From positions 2,240,001 to 2,304,000 of the forward strand of contig CBDANF010000003.1 in the NCBI GenBank assembly GCA_965197475.1: 64,000 nt of DNA, in the 5' to 3' direction. The number at the start of each line of letters is the position of its first letter. Position 1 is the stretch's first letter. A program made the position numbers and the translations under genes. Positions 8,171-17,500 of this stretch are shown piece after piece. The notes beneath the pieces are model-generated. The model saw nothing but the letters and a program-made list of their open reading frames with translations. It was not told where the DNA came from and did no database searches. The DNA is from Candidatus Poribacteria bacterium. Its GTDB lineage: Bacteria; Poribacteria; WGA-4E; WGA-3G.

Positions 8171-10024
8171 CTAACCTCTAATCCCCATGACTTCAAGTTG
8201 GGCAATCTGCTCCAACCATGATTCTCGGATTTCAGAGGAGTAGTCCCCAGGAAGTAGAGATTTACGGGTGCAATTCAGAAACGCTTGCAAGGTTTGATAC
8301 TTCCGTATTGGACCAATATTGGGTAGAATTCTATCGGATATAACGTCAATGATCTCATCTACAGACAAGGCACCTTTACGGTTCTTTGCAGCTTCAAGGT
8401 CGGCGCGGAGAGACGCAAAACTCGCAGCAGAATACCCTTCAGTTTGCGCAAGAAGGAGCTCAAACACTTCATCCGAAATCTCGCCTTTGAAAACGTTGCT
8501 GAGCGTCCAACGGAGAAATGTTTTGCGGTCCTCGCCAGTGGGATCAAGAACAGGAATTACGATGTCACCAACCCTGCCTTCTCTTCGAAGGTCCGGCGAC
8601 AGATTATAGATACGCGCGGTCATCAGCAGCCATGTGATATTACCGCGTAATTGTGGGTCAGACATCATCGCTTGTATCTTTCCAGTGAGTCTACGTTCAG
8701 TGGCGTGTGCATCCCTACCGACATCGCCGAATTGAGTATCTGCTTCATCGACAAAAATTAGCACATTCACGAGTGCCATCAGCAATCGTCTAAGACGTTC
8801 AAAGACGACATCCGTTTGTCCGAACCACATGCTGCGAATATTCTTGAGTACTAACACGGGGATATCAAGTTCACCTGCAAGCCCTTCAAAAATAAAAGTT
8901 TTTCCGCTTCCTATCGGTCCGCAGACGCTCAGTCCAGAGATAGAATCTTTCCCTGTAGATGTGATGCGGGGAATTATCTGCGTTCTTAAAAACTCAATCA
9001 GTTTCTGATTGCCGACAATATCTTTCAGGGTGTGTGCAGGCTTTTTAAATTCGACAACATCCTCACCTAATTGTGCTTGGATAAACTCAGAAACTTTTTC
9101 TATTACAATGTCTGGGCGCAGTTTTTCACCAGAATAACAGACTGAAATAAGCAGTTGGCGTAAAGCCTGGACAGATAATCCTGCTGTTAATATAGCGAGT
9201 TGCGATTGGCTTCCCCAGAGATTGAGTTCTTTACCTGCTGGTTTTTGGGTTCTGTTGAACCATGAAATAAAATGTCTTCGTGCTTCCACCTGCGGAGATT
9301 GGATTTCTACGTCAACAACTTGCGGCAAACGCATGATACGGGAGTTGACTAAACTCTTAGATTCAGCAATAAAGACAACAGTATCTGTGCCCTTCATGAA
9401 ATCAGAGTCAGAAATCCAATCTTGAACGATGCTGATCCTATGCCTATCAGCTAAACTTAAACTTCGGATTTCCCCTTCAGGGAGCAACATATCTGTTGCT
9501 TCTATAAAAATAAGCAGCTTATCTTTTAAAAACTGTTCTCCGCGTACATTGGCAGATCGCGAAATCAAACAGAATTGTCGTAGCAGTTCAAGTGCTAAGG
9601 TTGGGCTTCCGATAGCATCGTTGAGATATTGGTCAAACAAGCCATCAGAGGTATCAGCGGATTTATCTGCTTTAGGATTCGGGTTTTCCACCCTATTTGG
9701 GAGCGCGAAGAGGTTTGTAGCTTTTTTCTGTAAAGATTCAGTAGCCCCTCGCCATGAGTTAAAAGCTTCTTTTACCTTATCTCGGTCGCGTGTGTATAGA
9801 AATCGGAGTGGTCCGTTGAGCTCATACACTATCAGGATAAAACCTGGAATATCCCAACCCTGTGTAAGGAAGGGAACCAACGGAATATAATCTTCCTCTT
9901 TTGATTCTTCAATAAAAAAGAGGTCATGGATATTTCCGTGAAGGGTAATGCTTCGCGATGTGCCAGAATTAATAAGCATGCCAGCTTCTGTACGGAATTT
10001 GTAAGTAGGGTCTTTAATAGCTAT
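8171..10024 (-). CDS. Classical AAA+ ATPase with a large N-terminal region and one intact C-terminal AAA module
   Basis: Walker A GPIGSGKT, pore loop SMWFGQT, Walker B LIFVDEAD, SRH SPDLRREGR. First ATG is 9979; an in-frame ATA at 10024 follows a GGAGG RBS. Confidence 0.85.
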   Translation of the reverse strand: MAIKDPTYKFRTEAGMLINSGTSRSITLHGNIHDLFFIEESKEEDYIPLVPFLTQGWDIPGFILIVYELNGPLRFLYTRDRDKVKEAFNSWRGATESLQKKATNLFALPNRVENPNPKADKSADTSDGLFDQYLNDAIGSPTLALELLRQFCLISRSANVRGEQFLKDKLLIFIEATDMLLPEGEIRSLSLADRHRISIVQDWISDSDFMKGTDTVVFIAESKSLVNSRIMRLPQVVDVEIQSPQVEARRHFISWFNRTQKPAGKELNLWGSQSQLAILTAGLSVQALRQLLISVCYSGEKLRPDIVIEKVSEFIQAQLGEDVVEFKKPAHTLKDIVGNQKLIEFLRTQIIPRITSTGKDSISGLSVCGPIGSGKTFIFEGLAGELDIPVLVLKNIRSMWFGQTDVVFERLRRLLMALVNVLIFVDEADTQFGDVGRDAHATERRLTGKIQAMMSDPQLRGNITWLLMTARIYNLSPDLRREGRVGDIVIPVLDPTGEDRKTFLRWTLSNVFKGEISDEVFELLLAQTEGYSAASFASLRADLEAAKNRKGALSVDEIIDVISDRILPNIGPIRKYQTLQAFLNCTRKSLLPGDYSSEIRESWLEQIAQLEVMGIRG

Positions 10025-10063
10025 CGTTTTTCCCTCCGTCTTGGGTAGTTGCAGGCTTACTTA

Positions 10064-10539
10064 TACCATTTCTAAGTGATTATTGCATTAATTCGTCCGT
10101 TGGGTAGAGTTTGCGAAACCCATTATGTGTCAACTTAAGGAAATTAACCCTTATTTGTATGTATTTCAGCCCCTGCGGGGCGAAAGGTGTCCAGAAAACT
10201 CGTATAAAAAACTTCTTTAGCCCCTGCGGGGCGAAAGGTATATAAAAAACTCGTGATAACAATTTGATCTTGATGTGTGCACCAAAACAAGATACACCTT
10301 ATGCAGCATGCCATACGCGCATGCTGCCCGCTGGGGCTAAAGATTAGTAATCACACGCTACTATACACCTATCGTCCCGCTGGGACTAAAGACTCATACA
10401 TATATGTCCAATATATATTCTTAAGTTGACACATAAGGATAGAGCGACGCGAAACCCAACAACAGTGTGACAGAGTTGGGTTTCGCAAACTCTACCTAAC
10501 GGACAGGCTACTATGACAATTTGTCAATTAGATATGGTA
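10064..10539. mobile_element. Nested MITE/REP composite
   Basis: Outer TACCATTTCTAA...TTAGATATGGTA flanked by TTA/TTA; 28-bp IR at 10095-10122/10477-10504; 17-bp perfect IR at 10123-10139/10420-10436; internal AGCCCCTGCGGGGCGAAAGGT repeats. Confidence 0.8.
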
Positions 10540-10558
10540 TTACATTGAATTAATTCCA

Positions 10559-12361
10559 TTAACTCGCTTCAACCAACTTTTTCCATCGTGGCAGAAAACC
10601 CTCAGTTAAAAATCGGTCAAGGGACCAGATATTCTGTTGCGGTTCCTCTTCAAAAAAAGTTCCCATCGCCAATACGAGAGCATCTTTAAAACTATATTTT
10701 GTCTCAATTTGTGAGAGCATTTCATAAGTTTGGAGGAATGCAGTATGAATTCGTAGAAAGTTTAGCGCGGCAAAACTGAATGCGTTGAGTTTTAAAAAAC
10801 TATCTCCCGTTTTCTCCCAATACCATTCCGGTTGATAAAAACGGTCAAGCCGTTCCTTACAAAGCTGAACCGCTTTTTCAAGAACATCATCCAGTTCTTG
10901 GTGTTTTACCTCTCTATCTGGAATTTCAAGTTTTTCGCAAATCTCAGTATGTATCCGGTGTTTTGCTTCTTCGGAATCTACCCAAGTTTGGAACGCTTCA
11001 GATGCCCGTTCGAAACAGTTGCGGAGATCCGCAAGTGTCAAGTCAAGTTTGCTCGGAAAAGCCTTGAGCAACGAGGAACTTGGCAAAAGATGTGCTTGCT
11101 CTGGATGTAATTTTAAGAATTTATATTCTACGACATCTGCCAACATCTCTGCAAGGATAGGCGTAAAGGCAATGATAGAACGTTCATAAAGTTCGGCATC
11201 AATGAATTCTGTAAGTTTTTCAGTATCAAGATGAATCTCACCTGTACCTGTTTTGATGAATGCTTCAGCGAATGTCGTCTGTTCTCCCAAGACCGAAGCG
11301 GTTTCAGTTAGAGATAATGGTCGCTTAAAAAGTGATAATTCGGTATAAAGATCCTCAAAATCGAGTAAACTCTCCTGCCATTGATGTCCCCAAGTATCGT
11401 GGATCAGATATTTATCAAGTTCCTCTAACGGGAGAACACCAACCATTCGTGTGAGCGTTGTCGTAACCAATTCTACAGACAGTCCTGCGTCTTTTGCAAT
11501 TTGTTCTCGGAACGATAAGTCTAAATCTTCTGCATCAAAGATGCCAAACACAGGGAAGTGCGCAAACGGTTCTACCTGCCAAATTTTTCTGAGAAATTGG
11601 GCATACCCTACTTTCTTACCAGATTGTTTTTTAGCAACTCTATTTGTTATGTCGGATTTTTGTTCGTTCTGTGTTTCAATGTGAATTTCTTTCACCTCTG
11701 AAGGGAGACAGAAATAGAGTGCAGAGCAGGTTTTTATCAATTTTACTTCACCCACTTCAAAAGGCGCGCCCGGATATAAGTACTGAAATAGGCGGAGGAT
11801 GTCAGCGTCCAGTTTCGGGTTATCGGACACTAAATTAAAACGGGTCTGTAAACATCGCATAATTTGATGACGATGTTGGAGTGGGGCAGTCCGAATAGTG
11901 AGTTTTTTGTCCAGTTTATTTAACGCTTCAGAATTTATATGGAATATATTTTGGAGGTGCGCCTTCAGATACTCACGTTCTGATACCTCTGGTGGAGAAT
12001 CCGGTGTAAAACGTGTGAAAATTTTAGAACCAGCAGTGTCAAGGTTTTCAATATTGTGGTGATTGACAATTTCAGGGTATTGGTCAAGGGATAGCCAAAT
12101 CGCTTCAACAAAAATATTGTCCAAGACACTGGATGAGATATCTATTGTGCCATTTTGTATAGATGAACGGGAGACCTTGTCTGTTTCTACAACTAAAACG
12201 TTATGTAGATCGTAAAACTTTTCAAGCGTTTCAGTTGGAACTGTGCCACTCTTTTTTGTATCATTTATCTGCTTTACGTGTGTTTCAAAATCTTTCAAAC
12301 CTTCCAAAAGCACTTCGTAACTTTTTGGCGTATTATCCTGATGCCACGTGTTGATGTTCAC
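10559..12361 (-). CDS. Uncharacterised 600 aa protein with a zincin-like HDxxGH...ExxAD motif
   Basis: Long ORF with GAGGAGG RBS; contains LIHDTWGHQWQE and LAEMLAD. Confidence 0.7.
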   Translation of the reverse strand: MNINTWHQDNTPKSYEVLLEGLKDFETHVKQINDTKKSGTVPTETLEKFYDLHNVLVVETDKVSRSSIQNGTIDISSSVLDNIFVEAIWLSLDQYPEIVNHHNIENLDTAGSKIFTRFTPDSPPEVSEREYLKAHLQNIFHINSEALNKLDKKLTIRTAPLQHRHQIMRCLQTRFNLVSDNPKLDADILRLFQYLYPGAPFEVGEVKLIKTCSALYFCLPSEVKEIHIETQNEQKSDITNRVAKKQSGKKVGYAQFLRKIWQVEPFAHFPVFGIFDAEDLDLSFREQIAKDAGLSVELVTTTLTRMVGVLPLEELDKYLIHDTWGHQWQESLLDFEDLYTELSLFKRPLSLTETASVLGEQTTFAEAFIKTGTGEIHLDTEKLTEFIDAELYERSIIAFTPILAEMLADVVEYKFLKLHPEQAHLLPSSSLLKAFPSKLDLTLADLRNCFERASEAFQTWVDSEEAKHRIHTEICEKLEIPDREVKHQELDDVLEKAVQLCKERLDRFYQPEWYWEKTGDSFLKLNAFSFAALNFLRIHTAFLQTYEMLSQIETKYSFKDALVLAMGTFFEEEPQQNIWSLDRFLTEGFLPRWKKLVEAS

Positions 12362-12428
12362 ATTTTCCTCCTCTTTTCTCGTTTATCCTTGCGTAGGACG
12401 CGGGCATCTATGTCTCGCTATTATATAA

Positions 12429-12486
12429 TAGATTTTACAATTAACGACACACCTTCGATCAGCGCGCTCACAAAACGCACTTATCT
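12429..12486 (+). repeat. Dispersed ~60 bp repeat, copy 1
   Basis: ATTTTACAATTAACGAcAcACCTTcGATcaGCGCGCTcACAAAaCGCaC matches the reverse complement of 17533-17591. Confidence 0.7.
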
Positions 12487-12576
12487 GAAGGTGTGTACGT
12501 ATTTTAATGTTTCATCAAATAAGATCAATAATTAGCAAAGAGCCTGCGAACCGACATTGAATTGCAGTAAGCGAAT

Positions 12577-13413
12577 TTATAGCGGTAGTTCGGAATCACT
12601 TTTAGTTTCTTCCTCGGAGTCATCGGTTTTCGTCGGGGTATCAGTCTGTTGTGCGCCGAAGATAAGAGAATCAAATTCATCCGTAGCAGCAGTAGAACGT
12701 GCAGCGGCAAGAAATTCTTCCTCTTCAGCGCGTGAATCGGTACCTGCAAGTTCCTGAGCGACCTTTGATCGTCCCTTCGCTTTCTCTCGAATTTCTCGCA
12801 TCCTTGTCAATTCCGCTGAAGTACCATCCGTACTGATCCCAGATAGCATATCCGCGACATCTTCTTGCTCGCGTGCAGTAATAAGATCGGCAACTGCTTC
12901 AGATTGCTCAGTCTTAATCTTATCCAGATCACGATGAAGCCCTATCATCTGAAGTTTATGGGATTCAATGTCACCTTGCGAGCGTTCGATATCTTGTTCA
13001 AGTTCATCAATACGAGCGTTTTTCTCCTCCAAAGTGGAGTGAAAGTCATTGTATGAGGAAACACATCGGACGTATTCTGGATCCTGTTTGATCTCCTCGT
13101 CTGGTGTCCCAGCTTTTTGCAGTTCAGCGGCTGTACGTTGCGCCTTAGCAATTGCCCCTGCTTTCATCTGTTCAAGCTTGTCTATGTCGTTAGTCAATCC
13201 CTTAAGTGAATTCTTCTTCTGTTCAACAAGTGCAATGAGTTGCCCAATCGCATTTTTATAACGTTGGATATTCCCCTGCTTGTCGCGGATAATGTCTTCA
13301 TAATTTCCGCGAATAGCATTAGGGTCTTCCATCAGTTTATCAGCCTGCTCATGTGCACGGCCGGTTAGGTTGTACCAAATTGCTTTGAAAAAACGGGTAA
13401 TGCCGTTTGCCAT
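12577..13413 (-). CDS. PspA/IM30(Vipp1)-like protein, full-length paralogue
   Basis: N-terminal amphipathic helix GITRFFKAIW, DKLMEDP (PspA 'EDP' hinge), long helical hairpin, and C-terminal ELAG...EEEF...DEFDSL helix; AGGAGG RBS. Confidence 0.8.
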   Translation of the reverse strand: MANGITRFFKAIWYNLTGRAHEQADKLMEDPNAIRGNYEDIIRDKQGNIQRYKNAIGQLIALVEQKKNSLKGLTNDIDKLEQMKAGAIAKAQRTAAELQKAGTPDEEIKQDPEYVRCVSSYNDFHSTLEEKNARIDELEQDIERSQGDIESHKLQMIGLHRDLDKIKTEQSEAVADLITAREQEDVADMLSGISTDGTSAELTRMREIREKAKGRSKVAQELAGTDSRAEEEEFLAAARSTAATDEFDSLIFGAQQTDTPTKTDDSEEETKSDSELPL

Positions 13414-13494
13414 TGGAATTCCTCCTATGTGAGAAATTAAGTTTAATTCATATCATCCATCAAAATTTCATGAAAATTACGATATTGTAACAAG

Positions 13495-14253
13495 TTACGG
13501 TTTTCCGACCTTTGATCGTTCCATTGCTTTCTCCCGAATTTCTCGAATCCGCGCCAATTCCGCTGAAGTGTCATCCATACTAATACCTGATAGCATATTG
13601 TCAATATCCTTTTGCTCGCGTGCAGAAATCAGGTCGGCGACTGTTTCAGATTGCTCGGTCTTAATCCTATCCAGATCACGATGAAGCCTTGTTATCTGAA
13701 GTTTGTGAGATTCAATGTCGTTCTGCGCGCGTTCGATATCCTGCTCAAGTTTGGCGACACGGGCGTTTTTCTCCTCAAGGGTAGACTGAAAATCGTTATA
13801 AGAGGTAACACAGCGGACATAGTCTGGATGCTGTTTGATCTCCTCATCTGATATGCCGGCTTTTTGCAGTTCGTTGGCGGTGTCTTTTTTCTTATCAATT
13901 GCGCCTGCTTTCATCTGTTCAAGTTTGTCAATGCCATCTGTGACACCCTTAAGTGAACCCTTTTTCTGTTCAACAAGTGCAATAAGTTCCCCAATCACAT
14001 TTTTATAACGTTGGATATTCCCCTGTTTGTCGCGAATGATGTCTTCATAAGCACCGCGAACCGCTTCAGGATTTTCCATGAGTCTATCGTCCCACTCGTG
14101 GTGTTGGTTATTTCCCTGCTCTTCGCTGGAAATATCTTCATAAGCCTCGCGCACCACTTCAGGGTTTTCCATGAGTCTATCTGCCAGTTCAAGTGCCTGT
14201 CCGACTTGTGTATACCAGATAGCCTTGTATAAACGGGTAATGCCATTTACCAT
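13495..14253 (-). CDS. PspA/IM30-like protein, second paralogue (internal 31 aa duplication, shortened C-terminus)
   Basis: Collinear and highly similar to 12577-13413; ends at RSKVGKP; AGGAGG RBS. Confidence 0.8.
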   Translation of the reverse strand: MVNGITRLYKAIWYTQVGQALELADRLMENPEVVREAYEDISSEEQGNNQHHEWDDRLMENPEAVRGAYEDIIRDKQGNIQRYKNVIGELIALVEQKKGSLKGVTDGIDKLEQMKAGAIDKKKDTANELQKAGISDEEIKQHPDYVRCVTSYNDFQSTLEEKNARVAKLEQDIERAQNDIESHKLQITRLHRDLDRIKTEQSETVADLISAREQKDIDNMLSGISMDDTSAELARIREIREKAMERSKVGKP

Positions 14254-14408
14254 TGGAATTCCTCCTATGGGTGAGATTAAGTGATATTTATTTCATCCAT
14301 TTTGTATCATTCTAAAAATTTGTTTGAATTTTTCAGTTGCAAAAGTTTTAGACATCTTCACACGCTTTATATCGCAGAAATAGTCCAATAATTGCTAAAA
14401 GCAACTAA

Positions 14409-15281
14409 TTATTGGAGTTCCCTTTCTTCCGTGGACGTTGCCTTCGGATCTGCAGTCATAGTATGAACGTCTTCAACTGAGTGACTTGCTTGACGAATCT
14501 CGTGATCAGTGTTCGGGGTAAATTCCCGTATCTGTTCATCAACTTTCTTTGCAAAAGCGAGGCTTTCGTCAAGTTCTGTGCGAAGGCGTGAGAGCTCCGT
14601 CTCATTGCTTTCAGGACTGATTGTAAGCACACGGGCATAGAGATGTGAAAGCTGGATAATTGTTTGCTGAACGTCCGCTATCTGTTGTTCTCTATGTTGC
14701 TGTAGAACTCGTTTGACAGTTGCTAATTGTGAATCTTTTGATTTCTCGTGCATTTTCAACGTGTCTTTCAAACACTGCACTGCTTGTGTAAAGAGTTCAG
14801 AGACTTTACCGGTGATTTCAGCACTTACCGTAATAGGAAGGGTTGCCATCCAACCCGCGTCTCGTGCTTCCTCCTGAAAAGATTGGTGCAATGCCCGAAG
14901 TTCTTCCAGCATCTGTTCTGTTCTTTTGTCGCCATCCTTTTTCAATTGTTGGTGTAGTGCGTTCAGTTCTTCTTCCTGTTTTTGATGTGCTTCGTGAAGT
15001 ATCTCTTCATGAACGCGTTTAGTAATATCGTCTGTGCCGGTTGTCCACTTTGTAATTAGCGCACCAATAGGAAGACCAATGCCGATGACCGCACTTGCGA
15101 ATAGGTAGAGAATCTTCGGTTCTAAATTAAACACCCAGGACGCGAAAACGCCAAGTGCCCCCGCTGCAAATGGGTAAATGACGTAAGGATTGTTAATAAG
15201 ATGGAATAAGAATTTCTCCCGAAACAATTTCTTATCAATCAACGTTTTCACCAAATTGCATGTGCCATCATAAGCAGGCAA
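14409..15281 (-). CDS. Two-TM membrane protein with a cytoplasmic helical/coiled-coil domain; start uncertain
   Basis: Hydrophobic segments YVIYPFAAGALGVFASWVF and ILYLFASAVIGIGLPIGALI, followed by ~200 aa of charged helical sequence. Confidence 0.7.
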   Translation of the reverse strand: MPAYDGTCNLVKTLIDKKLFREKFLFHLINNPYVIYPFAAGALGVFASWVFNLEPKILYLFASAVIGIGLPIGALITKWTTGTDDITKRVHEEILHEAHQKQEEELNALHQQLKKDGDKRTEQMLEELRALHQSFQEEARDAGWMATLPITVSAEITGKVSELFTQAVQCLKDTLKMHEKSKDSQLATVKRVLQQHREQQIADVQQTIIQLSHLYARVLTISPESNETELSRLRTELDESLAFAKKVDEQIREFTPNTDHEIRQASHSVEDVHTMTADPKATSTEERELQ

Positions 15282-15527
15282 ACTGCCGTAGAGATAAGTC
15301 TGCTTGATGTTGAAGCAGTTTCACATCACTTTTCTAACAACTACTATCTATAGAATCCCTCACCTAATTTTAACATATCAATCAGCAGTTTGTAAAGAGA
15401 ATTAACAACAAATCTAATCCGCTTGTTTGATGTTATGCAAAGTATAGCAGAAGCACGTGAAAAAAGCAACTGAATACCTAAGTCCATTAAGGACATTTAG
15501 GTTTCAATCGTTAGACCAAAAATTCAG

Positions 15528-15605: not shown

Positions 15606-16577
15606 ATGTCTGAAGAACTTTCCCGCCTTGAAAAAGTTGAACTACGCGAAGTTTGGGATACTGAAGCACAGCATTTCACTCCGTGGTTGGCAAAGGAGAA
15701 AAACCTTACCCTCCTTAGTGAAACACTGGGAATGGAACTTGAACTCGAGGCACAAGAGAAAGACGTGGGTACCTTTCGTGCCGATATCTTATGTAAGGAT
15801 ACGGTTGATGATACTTGGGTATTAATTGAAAACCAATTGGGGCGGACAGATCATCGCCACCTCGGTCAAATTCTGACTTATGCTGCCGGTCTGGATGTCC
15901 ACACGATTATCTGGATAGCGCGAGAGTTTCGTAATGAGCATCGTGCTGCTTTGGACAAGTTAAATGAAATAACAGACGAACGTTTTCGGTACTTTGGGCT
16001 TGAAATTCAGGTTTGGCAAATTGAAAATTCTGCACGAGCACCACAATTCCGTATTGTCTCTAGCCCTAATAATTGGAGTAGAAATATGCAAAGTGCTGTA
16101 ACCAAAAATCCTTCTGAAAGACAACAGTACAAATATTGGACAAAATTCCAAGACTATATGATCCAAAATGGCAGTCAAATCAAACTACCTGAACCAAAGG
16201 CTAGTCGAAACTTTGAGATTAGGATTGAAACCGCTGGTACTCCAATAAGGGTATGGGTCAATAGGAATGAGTGTATTGGGGTTACGCTTAACATAGGACA
16301 CAAAAACGCAAAAACCTTTTTCCACTTATTGAAGGAACAACGTGATGAAATTGAGGATCAATTAGGTGAACCACTCGAATGGGAAGAAAAACCTAACCAG
16401 AATGATTCCAGGATAACCCTTAGAAAAGTTGACACAGATCCTGCAAACGAAACAGACTGGCATAATCAGCACGAATGGTTGGCATCAAAAGTGGAATTGT
16501 TTTATCAGATCTTCAAACCTCGTATTGATGAACTCAAAAATGCTGACTACCAACCTGAAGACGAGGAAGACGAATAA
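15606..16577 (+). CDS. DUF4268-domain protein with N-terminal PD-(D/E)XK (NucS-like) nuclease fold
   Basis: LREVW..EA..FTPWL, ADILC...VLIENQL..TDH.HLGQILTYAAG; C-terminal YWTKF...LEWEE...SRI. Confidence 0.8.
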   Translation: MSEELSRLEKVELREVWDTEAQHFTPWLAKEKNLTLLSETLGMELELEAQEKDVGTFRADILCKDTVDDTWVLIENQLGRTDHRHLGQILTYAAGLDVHTIIWIAREFRNEHRAALDKLNEITDERFRYFGLEIQVWQIENSARAPQFRIVSSPNNWSRNMQSAVTKNPSERQQYKYWTKFQDYMIQNGSQIKLPEPKASRNFEIRIETAGTPIRVWVNRNECIGVTLNIGHKNAKTFFHLLKEQRDEIEDQLGEPLEWEEKPNQNDSRITLRKVDTDPANETDWHNQHEWLASKVELFYQIFKPRIDELKNADYQPEDEEDE

Positions 16578-16582
16578 ACTCA

Positions 16583-17500
16583 ATGGACAATTCTGACTAT
16601 TTTCATATCCTCGCTTTAGATGGCGGTGGCACACGCGGCATCTATACTGCCCAACTCCTTACTCAAGTTGAACATGTTTTTGATGTGCGTATCAAAAACT
16701 GTTTTGATCTTATTGTTGGGACAAGCACTGGTGCTATTATTGCTGGTGCTGCTGTCTGCGATATTCCGATGGATGAAATCGTGGAACTCTTTGAAACGGA
16801 GGCACCGGATATATTTCGGAAAAGGTGGTATCGCAATCCGTTGTTTTTCAGCAAGTATTCAAACGAAAAACTCGCGCAGATTATCGCTAAACATATACCT
16901 GCCAAGTCCTTATCAGAAATATCAACCCCTTTGATGATAACAAGTTCTGAGATTACAAAGAGTGAGATGCACATTTTTAGATCCAATTACATAAAAAAAC
17001 TTGAGGAATCTGATTATTCAGACGGGGACGTTTGTTTGCGTGATGCGATCGTTGCCTCTTGTGCTGTACCTACTTTTTTCGCACCTAAACAGGTAAAAAG
17101 TCATCTGTTAGCAGATGGCGGTTTATGGGCAAACAATCCTTCCATTGCTGCCTATGCGGAAGCACTCACAAATTTCGGAAAAGAACCAACACAGGTTAAG
17201 ATTATATCAATCGGTACAGGACATTCCGCATCCATGTATCGTAATAAGCGAGGTTGGGGGTTTCTATCAGGATGGGGTGGCGTAAAGATAGTCTCTTACG
17301 TGATGACGTTGCAATCTCACACATCTGCAAACCTGGCGAGACTTCTACTAAAAGAAAACTATTTACGAATTGATCCGGCAATAGATTTTTGGGATTTGGA
17401 TACTATTAGACAGTTAGCAAATCTGCAGTCAATGGCATCGCGAGATTTTGCTGAACATGCTTCAGAAATTGAGGCGTTTATTCGTCCACAAATAAATTAA
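16583..17500 (+). CDS. Patatin-like phospholipase
   Basis: ILALDGGGTRG, nucleophile GTSTG, ASCAVPTFF, DGGLWANNP, ISIGTG. Confidence 0.9.
   Translation: MDNSDYFHILALDGGGTRGIYTAQLLTQVEHVFDVRIKNCFDLIVGTSTGAIIAGAAVCDIPMDEIVELFETEAPDIFRKRWYRNPLFFSKYSNEKLAQIIAKHIPAKSLSEISTPLMITSSEITKSEMHIFRSNYIKKLEESDYSDGDVCLRDAIVASCAVPTFFAPKQVKSHLLADGGLWANNPSIAAYAEALTNFGKEPTQVKIISIGTGHSASMYRNKRGWGFLSGWGGVKIVSYVMTLQSHTSANLARLLLKENYLRIDPAIDFWDLDTIRQLANLQSMASRDFAEHASEIEAFIRPQIN

Follow-up and report, generated by a model that had tools for sequence, protein, structure and literature searches.

How bacteria recycle ESCRT-III-like polymers is a question on which the pairing of a PspA-like protein with an AAA+ ATPase could throw light. 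Such a pairing is encoded in the stretch of DNA analyzed here (the window; 64 000 nucleotides of contig CBDANF010000003.1) from a Candidatus Poribacteria bacterium, a sponge symbiont with a genome that is 92.7% complete. An earlier sequence-only reading described five co-oriented genes, all of which are present in the ORF listing as minus-strand ORFs at the coordinates given below, and took them for a membrane-remodelling module. Of that module, a conserved PspA–AAA+ unit and a frequent upstream TM/coiled-coil protein stand, whereas the Vps4-type ATPase, the copolymer partner and the zincin do not. Gene presence, family assignments, conserved linkage and conserved motifs are established. On this basis, we give about an even chance to the reading that the window holds a reduced and rearranged form of a widespread bacterial membrane system, the core of which would be the PspA-like protein PspA2 and a dedicated two-module ATPase, AAA602, that threads or recycles the PspA2 polymer.

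AAA602 (positions 8171–9979, minus strand) consists of 602 amino acids. PF00004 covers residues 352–472 (E-value of 6e-14), and the C-terminal module (residues ∼305–602) belongs to the classical AAA clade, with Walker A and B motifs, the arginines of the second region of homology and a W-F-G pore loop; the string RSMWFGQT, which had been read as an aromatic pore loop, was indeed found. In an alignment of 39 family sequences, K360 is present in all 39, D411 in 37 and E412, R456 and R469 in 38 each, while an aromatic residue (W, Y or F) occupies the pore-loop position in 33 and the next Gly is kept in 38. With Walker A/B, pore loop, sensor-1 and arginine fingers all conserved, the protein is predicted to be a competent ATPase. 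The N-terminal module (residues ∼1–300) is a degenerate AAA module from which the P-loop is absent, GxxxxGK[ST] occurring in the N-domain of 0/39 sequences; hhalign matched it to the C-terminal module from Walker B to the lid (139 columns, E-value of 2.5e-5, probability of 75%).

The arrangement recalls ESCRT-III/Vps4/CdvC in that an ESCRT-III-superfamily gene adjoins a classical-clade AAA+ protein with an aromatic pore loop. However, AAA602 has no MIT domain and is therefore not a Vps4; its N-domain is a dead AAA module. The closest PDB relatives are VAT, Cdc48, p97 and AFG2, and AAA602 is not specifically close to Vps4/CdvC: the active domain scores 93 and 83 bits against VAT/Cdc48 domains and 94.5 bits against a CdvC-like chain.

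PspA2 (12577–13413, minus strand; 278 amino acids) is the system's conserved PspA/ESCRT-III-like member. Judged by sequence, both PspA-like proteins of the window are diverged PspA/Vipp1 relatives, with a likeness that is real but weak. PF04012 scores 28.6 bits on PspA2 (E-value of 1.4e-6, model positions 3–204 of 220) and 26.9 bits on PspA1, both below the cut-off of 33.9, and phmmer against Nostoc Vipp1 gave an E-value of 0.003 for PspA2 (0.003–0.004 for the two proteins). The PspA fold that had been suggested is supported in that Vipp1 is the best PDB sequence match of PspA2 and, as entry 6zvr, the top Foldseek match of its AF2 model (E-value of 9.6e-5 over ∼250 columns), followed by 8qbw and 8qbs. 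The model has a pLDDT of 76, exceeding 90 across residues 40–170, and predicts helices at residues 3–29, 31–100, 112–192, 195–223 and 227–240. As in Vipp1/IM30 and canonical PspA, an amphipathic N-terminal helix, a long α1–α2 hairpin and α3–α5 follow one another in this order; in PspA2 the hairpin tip is extended, and an acidic linker and an SELPL C-terminus come last. Unlike those proteins, with which identity is 18–21%, PspA2 has longer hairpin arms, a different C-terminal tail and a tip insert. The insert had been noted from sequence and corresponds to a loop at residues 101–111 of the AF2 model, with a short helix at 105–108; most distant homologues are 11–16 residues shorter at this point than the Poribacteria PspA-like sequences.

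Other comparisons were less telling. A family profile of the PspA-like proteins did not improve the PDB match, and hhalign of this family against the genome's three canonical PspAs (encoded outside the window; in two of them a membrane domain is fused to the N-terminus) found nothing. Geometry-only alignment of the PspA2 model placed generic coiled-coil hairpins (Smc, chemoreceptors and PI3K p85; Z of 11–13) at the top and Vipp1 outside the top 50; pure geometry is unspecific for this model.

The linkage with the ATPase is strong and is conserved within Poribacteria as well as in a remote lineage of Acidobacteriota type. Of 80 Poribacteria loci, 77 have a PspA2-type gene upstream of the ATPase gene in the same orientation, the three misses being contigs that end too soon; in 51 of the 77 it is directly adjacent (gap of at most 434 nt), and 51/77 loci consist of PspA–AAA alone, with transporter genes absent between them. 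Among 61 Poribacteria genomes, the ATPase occurs in 42 and a PspA2-type gene in 41, and PspA2-type genes are absent from all 19 genomes that lack the ATPase; presence and absence are concordant in 60/61, and the ATPase of the sole discordant genome is on a 4.4 kb contig. A distant subfamily, in which the ATPase is ∼30% identical and the named matches are from Acidobacteriota, has a PspA2-family gene in 24 of the 26 loci for which 4.2 kb or more of sequence is available upstream. Furthermore, the major clades and subclades of the PspA and AAA trees correspond.

The C-terminal tail is also shared along these lines: it is present in 76/77 ATPase-proximal PspA copies and in 0/33 extra copies. The last five residues of the 77 proximal copies are SELPL (53), SELPV (15), SELPI (4), SKLPV (4) and TELPL (1), all of which agree with S/T-E/K-L-P-L/I/V, and distant homologues terminate in D/E-x-R/V-P-x-I/L behind a variable linker. 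A short conserved motif at a flexible C-terminus is reminiscent of the MIM motifs of ESCRT-III, to which it is unrelated as far as is visible. Placed behind a flexible linker, the conserved tail looks like a recruitment or degron motif, which would suit a substrate and an adaptor alike.

PspA1 (13495–14253, minus strand; 252 amino acids) is a tandem paralogue with 66% identity to PspA2 that stops short of this tail. Near its N-terminus it has an internal duplication of 31 amino acids (93 nt; repeat at 14010–14088 and 14103–14181). Loci contain one to four PspA copies, and the extra copies are tail-less in 33/33 cases, many having in-frame stops in relatives; a second copy is not conserved, and the earlier idea of a PspA (co)polymer of two paralogues was not upheld. 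PspA1 could cap or dilute the PspA2 polymer or be merely decaying.

TM290 (14409–15281, minus strand; 290 amino acids) begins with a hydrophobic hairpin at residues ∼33–80, composed of one clear segment (56–78) and, from the alignment, a weaker one ahead of it (∼33–53), and continues as a long helical cytoplasmic part, in agreement with its description as a TM/coiled-coil protein. Homologues lie immediately 5′ of the PspA-like gene in 22/80 Poribacteria loci; the A3 profile matches an equivalent ORF in three metagenome loci, and most others have a similar TM-plus-helical ORF in this position. TM290 is a candidate for the role of anchoring the PspA-like protein at the membrane or nucleating it. 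Neither Pfam nor NCBIfam has a family that matches it. The nearest Atlas cluster with a family carries PF25587, Rv2743c (PspM), a weak lead (score of 0.87, with the family on 12% of members), and Pfam gave no Rv2743c match in TM290 at E ≤ 0.1. Small two-TM proteins are likewise encoded beside PspA homologues as the anchors PspM of Mycobacterium tuberculosis (Rv2743c) and LiaI of Bacillus subtilis; TM290 differs in its helical cytoplasmic part of ∼200 residues, and PspM is reported from Actinobacteria alone in a comparative survey (Ravi et al., 2024, mSystems; PMC11237479).

The fifth gene encodes unk600 (10559–12361, minus strand), a mostly α-helical, Poribacteria-restricted protein of 600 amino acids with an invariant motif, L-I-H-D-T-W-G-H-Q-W-Q-E, at residues 319–330. 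All named members among its 191 homologues are hypothetical proteins of Poribacteria, and there is no Pfam, NCBIfam or PADLOC match. Its AF2 model (pLDDT of 81.6, pTM of 0.81) has no Foldseek match at E ≤ 0.001 and a best VIA Z of 6.3. The label zincin-like has no support, as searches for HExxH, for a family and for a fold were all empty. Unk600 co-occurs with TM290 in all 19 loci with enough flank, and it sits where long operons have their SBP–permease–ABC genes. A separate TM290–unk600 pair is found at another locus in four of five dyad-type genomes, where it adjoins NMT1–VWA–OmpA genes; in the window type it is interleaved with PspA–AAA, and the system's genes for NMT1-like, VWA and PBP-OmpA envelope proteins lie at a distance of 1.47 Mb. 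Rearrangement keeps the parts of the system together while the TM290–unk600 pair moves between loci. Unk600 may be an accessory factor substituting for the NitT/TauT-like ABC transporter genes of an ancestral long operon.

PspA–AAA neighbourhoods, which the sequence-only reading suspected to have been surveyed already, are in print. Ravi et al. (2024) report PspA beside an ATPase that contains two AAA+ domains, the first of them inactive; a permease, an ABC ATPase and a protein of PBPB+OmpA type sometimes join the pair. From these gene neighbourhoods they propose ATP-dependent membrane remodelling. The window shares with this system a PspA-like gene kept with an ATPase that has a degenerate N-terminal AAA module, and its relatives share the ABC ATPase, BPD permease, NMT1-type binding protein and OmpA-domain protein. 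It differs in having the Poribacteria-only protein instead of transporter genes, a tail-less extra PspA and remote PBP-OmpA/VWA genes. As far as seen in that source, the SELPL extreme C-terminal motif of the ATPase-proximal PspA, the tail-less and often decaying tandem paralogues such as PspA1, unk600 in place of the ABC module and the mobile TM290–unk600 pair are apparently new. In haloarchaeal 'Halo_adaptin' loci, as described by Makarova et al. (2024), a PspA-like gene is also 5′ of a Vps4-like ATPase without MIT; however, the N-domain there is of VAT type, and the loci include winged-helix and adaptin-like genes, none of which are in the window.

In the mechanism that we propose, the N-terminal amphipathic helix would dock PspA2 on the cytoplasmic face of the inner membrane, where the protein would polymerise via its long α1–α2 hairpin beside TM290. 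A hexamer of AAA602 would recognise the extreme C-terminal tail, comprising the acidic linker and S-E-L-P-L-COOH, and thread PspA2 subunits through the W-F-G pore, leading to ATP-driven turnover or reshaping of the polymer. The scheme would parallel ESCRT-III/Vps4, but both the recruiting domain and the recognised motif would be unrelated. We infer that PspA2 polymerises and binds the membrane, that the TM protein recruits it and that the ATPase recognises its tail, threads it and recycles it.

In a less probable reading, to which we give perhaps half the weight, the PspA-like protein would be a regulator or adaptor of the ATPase and not its substrate; membrane or solute stress would then free or activate the ATPase for other clients, such as damaged membrane proteins or components of the linked ABC transporter/PBP-OmpA/VWA envelope complex. 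Among distant-subfamily loci, 39/51 have an ABC ATPase gene immediately 5′ of the AAA gene (within 300 nt) and 24/28 have the full SBP–permease–ABC set, so that the ATPase gene is tied to the ABC transporter as tightly as to PspA; two of the 26 distant loci (L113 and L121) keep ABC genes with no PspA gene nearby, and the client could therefore be something else. Among PDB entries, general unfoldases of the Cdc48/VAT type come closest, and Ravi et al. (2024) also suggest chaperone-like assembly of membrane complexes. There is a regulatory precedent: in E. coli, PspA keeps PspF, an AAA+ protein, in an inactive state, and this pair, according to the review the only PspA–AAA+ pair to have been characterised, is not one of substrate and unfoldase. 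As proposed for the window, a PspA-family protein is there functionally paired with an AAA+ protein; however, PspF is an NtrC-type σ54 activator with a DNA-binding domain, whereas AAA602 belongs to the classical AAA clade and has a pore loop of substrate type. The reported lack of pspC and pspF neighbours also holds, as the genome has no PspC match and none of its seven σ54-activator matches is inside the window. Against regulation, PspA–AAA stands alone in 51/77 Poribacteria loci, and L011-type SBP and permease homologues are both absent from the window genome, so the pair functions in the absence of the transporter. The conserved tail, although it fits an adaptor too, resembles a recruitment or degron motif.

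It is unlikely that co-location reflects only a common envelope-stress signal, the proteins never touching and the ATPase having an unrelated housekeeping role. Gene order is plastic, with unk600, DUF481, ABC genes, an LRR gene or a MITE between PspA and AAA in different genomes; however, functional coupling predicts that the pair persists despite such change, and it does so over two very distant clades and several rearrangements, with the concordance given above. Least probable of all, and very improbable, is a role in phage defence or another conflict, with the ATPase controlling a PspA-like membrane effector. The distribution is patchy inside the phylum, tandem paralogues diverge fast and decay, and patatin and DUF4268 genes adjoin on the opposite strand. 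However, PADLOC returned just coiled-coil noise and one weak P-loop match, the long operon codes for a solute-binding ABC transporter, and the core pair is strongly conserved (the ATPase is 72–92% identical across its family) at a stable locus adjoining housekeeping genes.

Repeats that had been noted to separate some of the genes include a MITE-like insertion of ∼410 bp (10095–10504) between the unk600 and ATPase genes. It is bounded by inverted repeats with 28-nt arms that are 96% complementary, contains 50-nt tandem units, has 81 full or partial matches across the genome and is not part of the PspA–AAA system; the remaining direct repeats in the locus are the PspA gene duplication and the 93-nt duplication inside PspA1. 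A promoter-like site 5′ of TM290 (15367–15396, minus strand; TTTACA-18-TAAAAT, 10/12 matches, TG) is a weak candidate because the scan gave 21 sites against 16.2 expected. One sponge study has metatranscriptome contigs that contain zero-mismatch pieces of the AAA602, PspA2 and TM290 genes; they give weak support for expression of the locus, DNA carry-over being possible.

Five co-oriented genes had been described from the sequence, and all five were confirmed as open reading frames on the minus strand: TM290, a TM/helical protein (14409–15281), PspA1 (252 aa; 13495–14253), PspA2 (278 aa; 12577–13413), unk600 (10559–12361) and AAA602 (8171–9979). A MITE-like element of ∼410 bp with 28-nt terminal inverted repeats lies at 10095–10504; its internal 50-nt units hold GCCCCTGCGGGGC hairpins, and 81 full or partial matches to it occur in the genome. 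The flanks of the cluster are unrelated to the system, with a xylose-isomerase-like TIM barrel and a TPP enzyme on one side. On the other, a DUF4268 protein (323 aa) followed at once by a patatin-like phospholipase (305 aa) is encoded divergently on the plus strand (15606–17500), and may form a small conflict or defence pair. The sequence-only reading had also reported that no pspB, pspC, pspF or lia genes are nearby. This was borne out for PspC, with no matches in the window's genome, and for sigma54 activators, with seven matches in the genome and none in the window. The locus therefore differs from a classical Psp or Lia system in lacking both a PspC partner in its genome and a PspF-type activator in the window.

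The two PspA-like proteins score 26.9 and 28.6 bits (E values of 4e-6 and 1.4e-6) against PF04012 (PspA/IM30), below the Pfam gathering cut-off of 33.9, and are therefore called PspA-like superfamily relatives rather than PF04012 members. PspA2, the ATPase-proximal copy, spans positions 3–204 of the 220 in this model at E 1.4e-6. Its best PDB sequence matches (phmmer) are Nostoc Vipp1 chains, nearly gap-free over ∼160 residues at E 0.0027–0.0043, and a 12-sequence family profile was no sharper than the single sequence (E 0.007–0.019). In hhalign comparisons of shallow alignments, the PspA2 family gave nothing against the genome's three canonical PspAs (probability <1%). The AF2 model of PspA2 (pLDDT 76, and >90 over residues 40–170) has helices at 3–29, 31–100, 112–192, 195–223 and 227–240, in the order alpha0, alpha1–alpha2 hairpin and alpha3–alpha5, and its hairpin tip is a loop (101–111) containing a short helix. 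The proposed insert at this tip was upheld, as the Poribacteria sequences have 11–16 extra residues there compared with most distant homologues. In Foldseek searches Vipp1 chains took ranks 1–5, 7 and 8, headed by 6zvr (E 9.6e-5) and followed by 8qbw, 8qbs, 7o3x, 8qbr and 8qhx. Geometry-only alignment was unspecific, with generic antiparallel coiled coils on top (Z 11–13) and Vipp1 absent from the best 50 matches. From the sequence and model comparisons, PspA1 and PspA2 are read as probable diverged relatives within the PspA/ESCRT-III superfamily, outside PF04012 by Pfam's own rule. The canonical PspA genes of the same genome were located at C3:4009762–4013367 (L001) and C3:4059686–4063321 (L003). 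Two of them stand in tandem (405 and 322 aa), with an N-terminal membrane domain fused to PspA, and the third (222 aa) lies directly upstream of an ABC ATPase gene.

The claim of an AAA+ ATPase with an aromatic pore loop was confirmed. PF00004 matches AAA602 at residues 352–472 (E 6e-14), and an alignment of 39 diverse family members retains K360 of Walker A in all 39, D411 and E412 of Walker B in 37 and 38, the pore-loop aromatic W/Y/F385 in 33 and the following G387 in 38, and sensor-1 T454 and the arginines R456 and R469 in 38 each. By its Walker A and B motifs, aromatic-hydrophobic-Gly pore loop and second region of homology, AAA602 is a classical-clade AAA protein. Its nearest solved relatives are VAT, Cdc48/p97 and AFG2, and its NCBIfam scores are 38 bits for CDC48, 27 for Pan2 and 26 for CdvC. 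Against individual chains, the active domain scores the CdvC-like 4d81 (94.5 bits) the same as the single VAT domains (D1, 93.3; D2, 82.6), a result that gives no support for a special kinship with Vps4. Furthermore, whereas Vps4 and CdvC carry an N-terminal MIT domain, AAA602 has no MIT match in Pfam or NCBIfam at E ≤ 0.1, and its N-terminal part instead aligns to its own C-terminal AAA module from Walker B to the lid (139 columns, E 2.5e-5, probability 75%; hhalign). The invariant P229 and R234 of this N-module fall at the AAA 'P...R' lid-junction position, its PDB profile matches are weak and lie on the lid region of CdvC/Vps4 chains, and a GxxxxGK[ST] P-loop was found within the N-terminal 300 residues of none of the 39 members. 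As judged from its sequence, AAA602 is the protein with 'two AAA+ domains, N-terminal copy inactive' that appears in the relevant part of the comparative survey of Ravi et al. (2024; PMC11237479).

The family of this ATPase has 232 representatives (E ≤ 1e-30 in a 50%-clustered library). Using a 13-sequence alignment as the query, 80 loci, all from Poribacteria, were kept out of 522 relatives. The proposed co-occurrence of the ATPase with a PspA-like gene held in 77 of these 80, which have a co-oriented PspA2-type gene upstream, and in 24 of 26 distant loci; in the three Poribacteria exceptions the contig stops within unk600 or immediately before it. Among 61 sampled Poribacteria genomes, 42 have the ATPase and 41 the PspA2-type gene, the sole discordant genome having its ATPase on a 4.4-kb contig, and none of the 19 ATPase-less genomes has a PspA2-type gene. 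By genus, five have both genes and eight have neither. A bare PspA–AAA dyad (gap of up to 434 nt) accounts for 51 of the 77 linked loci. The window type consists of TM290, one to four PspA copies, unk600 and the AAA gene, and recurs in L092, a locus whose ATPase is only 59% identical; in the long type a binding protein, DUF481, a permease and an ABC ATPase are encoded between PspA and AAA. In genus g5 the DUF481 gene (outer-membrane beta-barrel-like) is found inside this interval (L011, 7068–7883; L012, 4897–5709), and the DUF481 homologue of the window's genome lies on another contig (C2:1047183–1047935). In one Poribacteria genome a gene for a 1392-aa LRR/Ig-like/dockerin/Por-tail protein (L037, 5009–9187) is placed between unk600 and the ATPase gene, at a PspA–AAA distance of 7.3 kb. 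A long operon from a Poribacteria-order genome (L013; G053:C264:96000–110000) encodes an ATPase only 28–30% identical to AAA602 that groups with the metagenome loci L173–L175 and not with other Poribacteria, which suggests a second lineage or a transfer.

The distant loci come from a metagenome scan with an ATPase subfamily ∼30% identical to AAA602, which yielded 80 loci, 26 of them extending at least 4.2 kb upstream; in the 24 linked cases the PspA2-family gene is usually ∼3 kb upstream. The named homologues of this ATPase belong to Acidobacteriota and include the cultured Sulfidibacter corallicola and Acanthopleuribacter pedis, so that genetics is possible. The operon of L108 begins with NMT1+OmpA (577 aa), VWA (269 aa), OmpA (516 aa), a TM/helical protein (333 aa) and the PspA-like protein (276 aa), and continues with an NMT1-type binding protein (358 aa), a BPD permease (270 aa), an ABC ATPase (315 aa) and the AAA protein (581 aa). 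The midpoint-rooted AAA tree (ultrafast bootstrap/SH-aLRT) agrees with a quickly built PspA tree in the two major clades and in the subclades. As both clades contain the long operon, with the dyads nested inside it, that arrangement is probably the ancestral one. The ABC ATPase, permease and PBPB+OmpA genes, optional in the description by Ravi et al., are absent from the window and present in its relatives L011, L013 and L108; in the window's own genome a PBP-OmpA homologue lies at a distance of 1.47 Mb, and there is no SBP or permease of the L011 type.

The ATPase-proximal PspA copies carry a C-terminal tail of the form ELAGTDS...EEEFLAAAR...EFDxLIFGAQQTD, an acidic linker and a terminal S/T-E/K-L-P-L/I/V, which is conserved in 76 of 77; the last residues are SELPL in 53, SELPV in 15, SELPI and SKLPV in four each and TELPL in one. 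Distant homologues have a variable linker and then a terminal D/E-x-R/V-P-x-I/L. All 33 extra tandem copies are tail-less, including PspA1, which is intact with a 31-residue internal duplication. A recruitment signal would be expected to take such a form, as a terminal motif that follows a flexible linker and occurs only on the ATPase-linked copy. Many of the extra copies in relatives contain in-frame stops, one or two in examples such as G029:C3:14673–15215 and G031:C1:4040331–4041475, and the tandem array appears to expand and decay repeatedly.

Of the remaining two proteins, unk600 had been labelled zincin-like. This label is unsupported, as the invariant motif H-D-T-W-G-H-Q-W-Q-E is found in unk600 and an HExxH is not; nor was there a Pfam, NCBIfam or PADLOC family match. 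All named members among its 191 homologues are Poribacteria hypotheticals. Its model is confident and mostly helical (pLDDT 81.6, pTM 0.81) and gave no Foldseek match in the PDB and no convincing match overall: the best Z in a VIA wide search was 6.3, within helical noise (putative hydrolase 3cmn, Z 5.2), and the best Atlas score was 0.77. The TM290 profile had no match in the PDB, and a comparison with the PspA2 family gave a probability of <1% (hhalign; shallow alignments). Nor did TM290 match the PspM family model (PF25587, Rv2743c) at E ≤ 0.1, the connection being an Atlas feature lead only (0.87). The relevant part of Ravi et al. (2024) names 'Snf7 homologs with a TM segment', a class to which TM290 may belong. 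In most metagenome loci a TM-plus-helical ORF precedes the PspA-like gene, three of these being recognisably homologous to TM290. TM290 and unk600 occur together in all 19 loci with enough flank. A search of five dyad-type genomes showed them side by side at another locus in four, preceded immediately by NMT1-like, VWA and OmpA genes and followed by an FAD oxidoreductase gene. The syntenic site in the window's genome (L178; C3:3717001–3731000) retains NMT1-like (648 aa), VWA (304 aa), OmpA-domain (547 aa) and DUF4159 (299 aa) genes without TM290 or unk600, from which we infer that both genes moved to the PspA–AAA locus, and that the genes at 3.72 Mb are what remains there of the long operon, its envelope half. 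Continued linkage of the parts despite rearrangement is an argument for a single system. A recent insertion of unk600 was considered and dropped, given its presence in L092 and as the separate pair.

The suspicion that PspA–AAA neighbourhoods had been noted before proved right: the pertinent part of Ravi et al. (2024) describes PspA with a two-AAA+-domain protein and infers ATP-dependent remodelling. Both marks of that neighbourhood, the inactive N-terminal AAA+ module and the adjoining PspA homologue, are found here, and the locus is a variant of this published contextual prediction. Elsewhere, the relevant passages of a 2025 review (PMC7619361) describe bacteria as apparently lacking a Vps4-like ATPase and treat the disassembly of PspA/Vipp1 polymers as an open question, and in those of Makarova et al. 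(2024) ESCRT-III-plus-Vps4 systems belong to archaea and eukaryotes only. Among the listings and opening lines of abstracts returned by full-text literature searches, there was no experimental work on a classical AAA+ associated with PspA in bacteria, and nothing on PspA in Poribacteria. Of the proposed ESCRT-III-like module, the conserved PspA–AAA linkage and the pore-loop ATPase stand, but no special kinship with Vps4 emerged and the idea is already in print.

How the pair works can be read in different ways. AAA602 may grip the C-terminal tail of PspA2, thread the subunits and so turn the polymer over, a model to which we give an even chance. A reading in terms of PspA only is opposed by the gene neighbourhoods of the distant loci: 39 of 51 have an ABC ATPase gene no more than 300 nt upstream of that for the AAA protein, 24 of 28 have the full transporter set, and L113 and L121 keep the transporter with no PspA gene nearby. 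The PspA-like protein might instead regulate or adapt an ATPase that has other clients; we consider this rather unlikely. Polymer recycling can also be set within a wider and more tentative joint reading, doubtful as a whole, of a bacterial ESCRT-III-plus-unfoldase machine that evolved independently of Vps4. Here a C-terminal recruitment motif, S-E-L-P-L in Poribacteria and of the D-R-P-K-I type in Acidobacteriota, would be read by the Cdc48-like AAA+, with the dead first module as a docking domain. The pair would be the cytoplasmic motor of an envelope-spanning apparatus of TM anchor, VWA, PBP-OmpA and ABC transporter in which solute sensing is coupled to active remodelling of the membrane, and in Poribacteria the transporter would have been replaced by unk600, a novel 600-aa protein of hitherto unseen fold.

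ATP-dependent remodelling by such a pair is, as an idea, already a published contextual prediction; the value of the locus lies in a more sharply defined, testable list of parts and in the variant seen in Poribacteria. As the PspA-like protein was never found without its own pore-loop AAA+, ATP-driven polymer turnover is open to a direct and simple test with two proteins, a defined tail motif and a Walker-B trap. Four metatranscriptome runs of one sponge study contain, as assembled contigs, stretches of the ATPase, PspA2 and TM290 genes without a mismatch; such contigs show neither strand, level nor true transcription. They do not cover the greater part of unk600 or some stretches of the ATPase gene, which is no sign of silence, and contigs from related strains bridge PspA2–PspA1 and PspA1–TM290.
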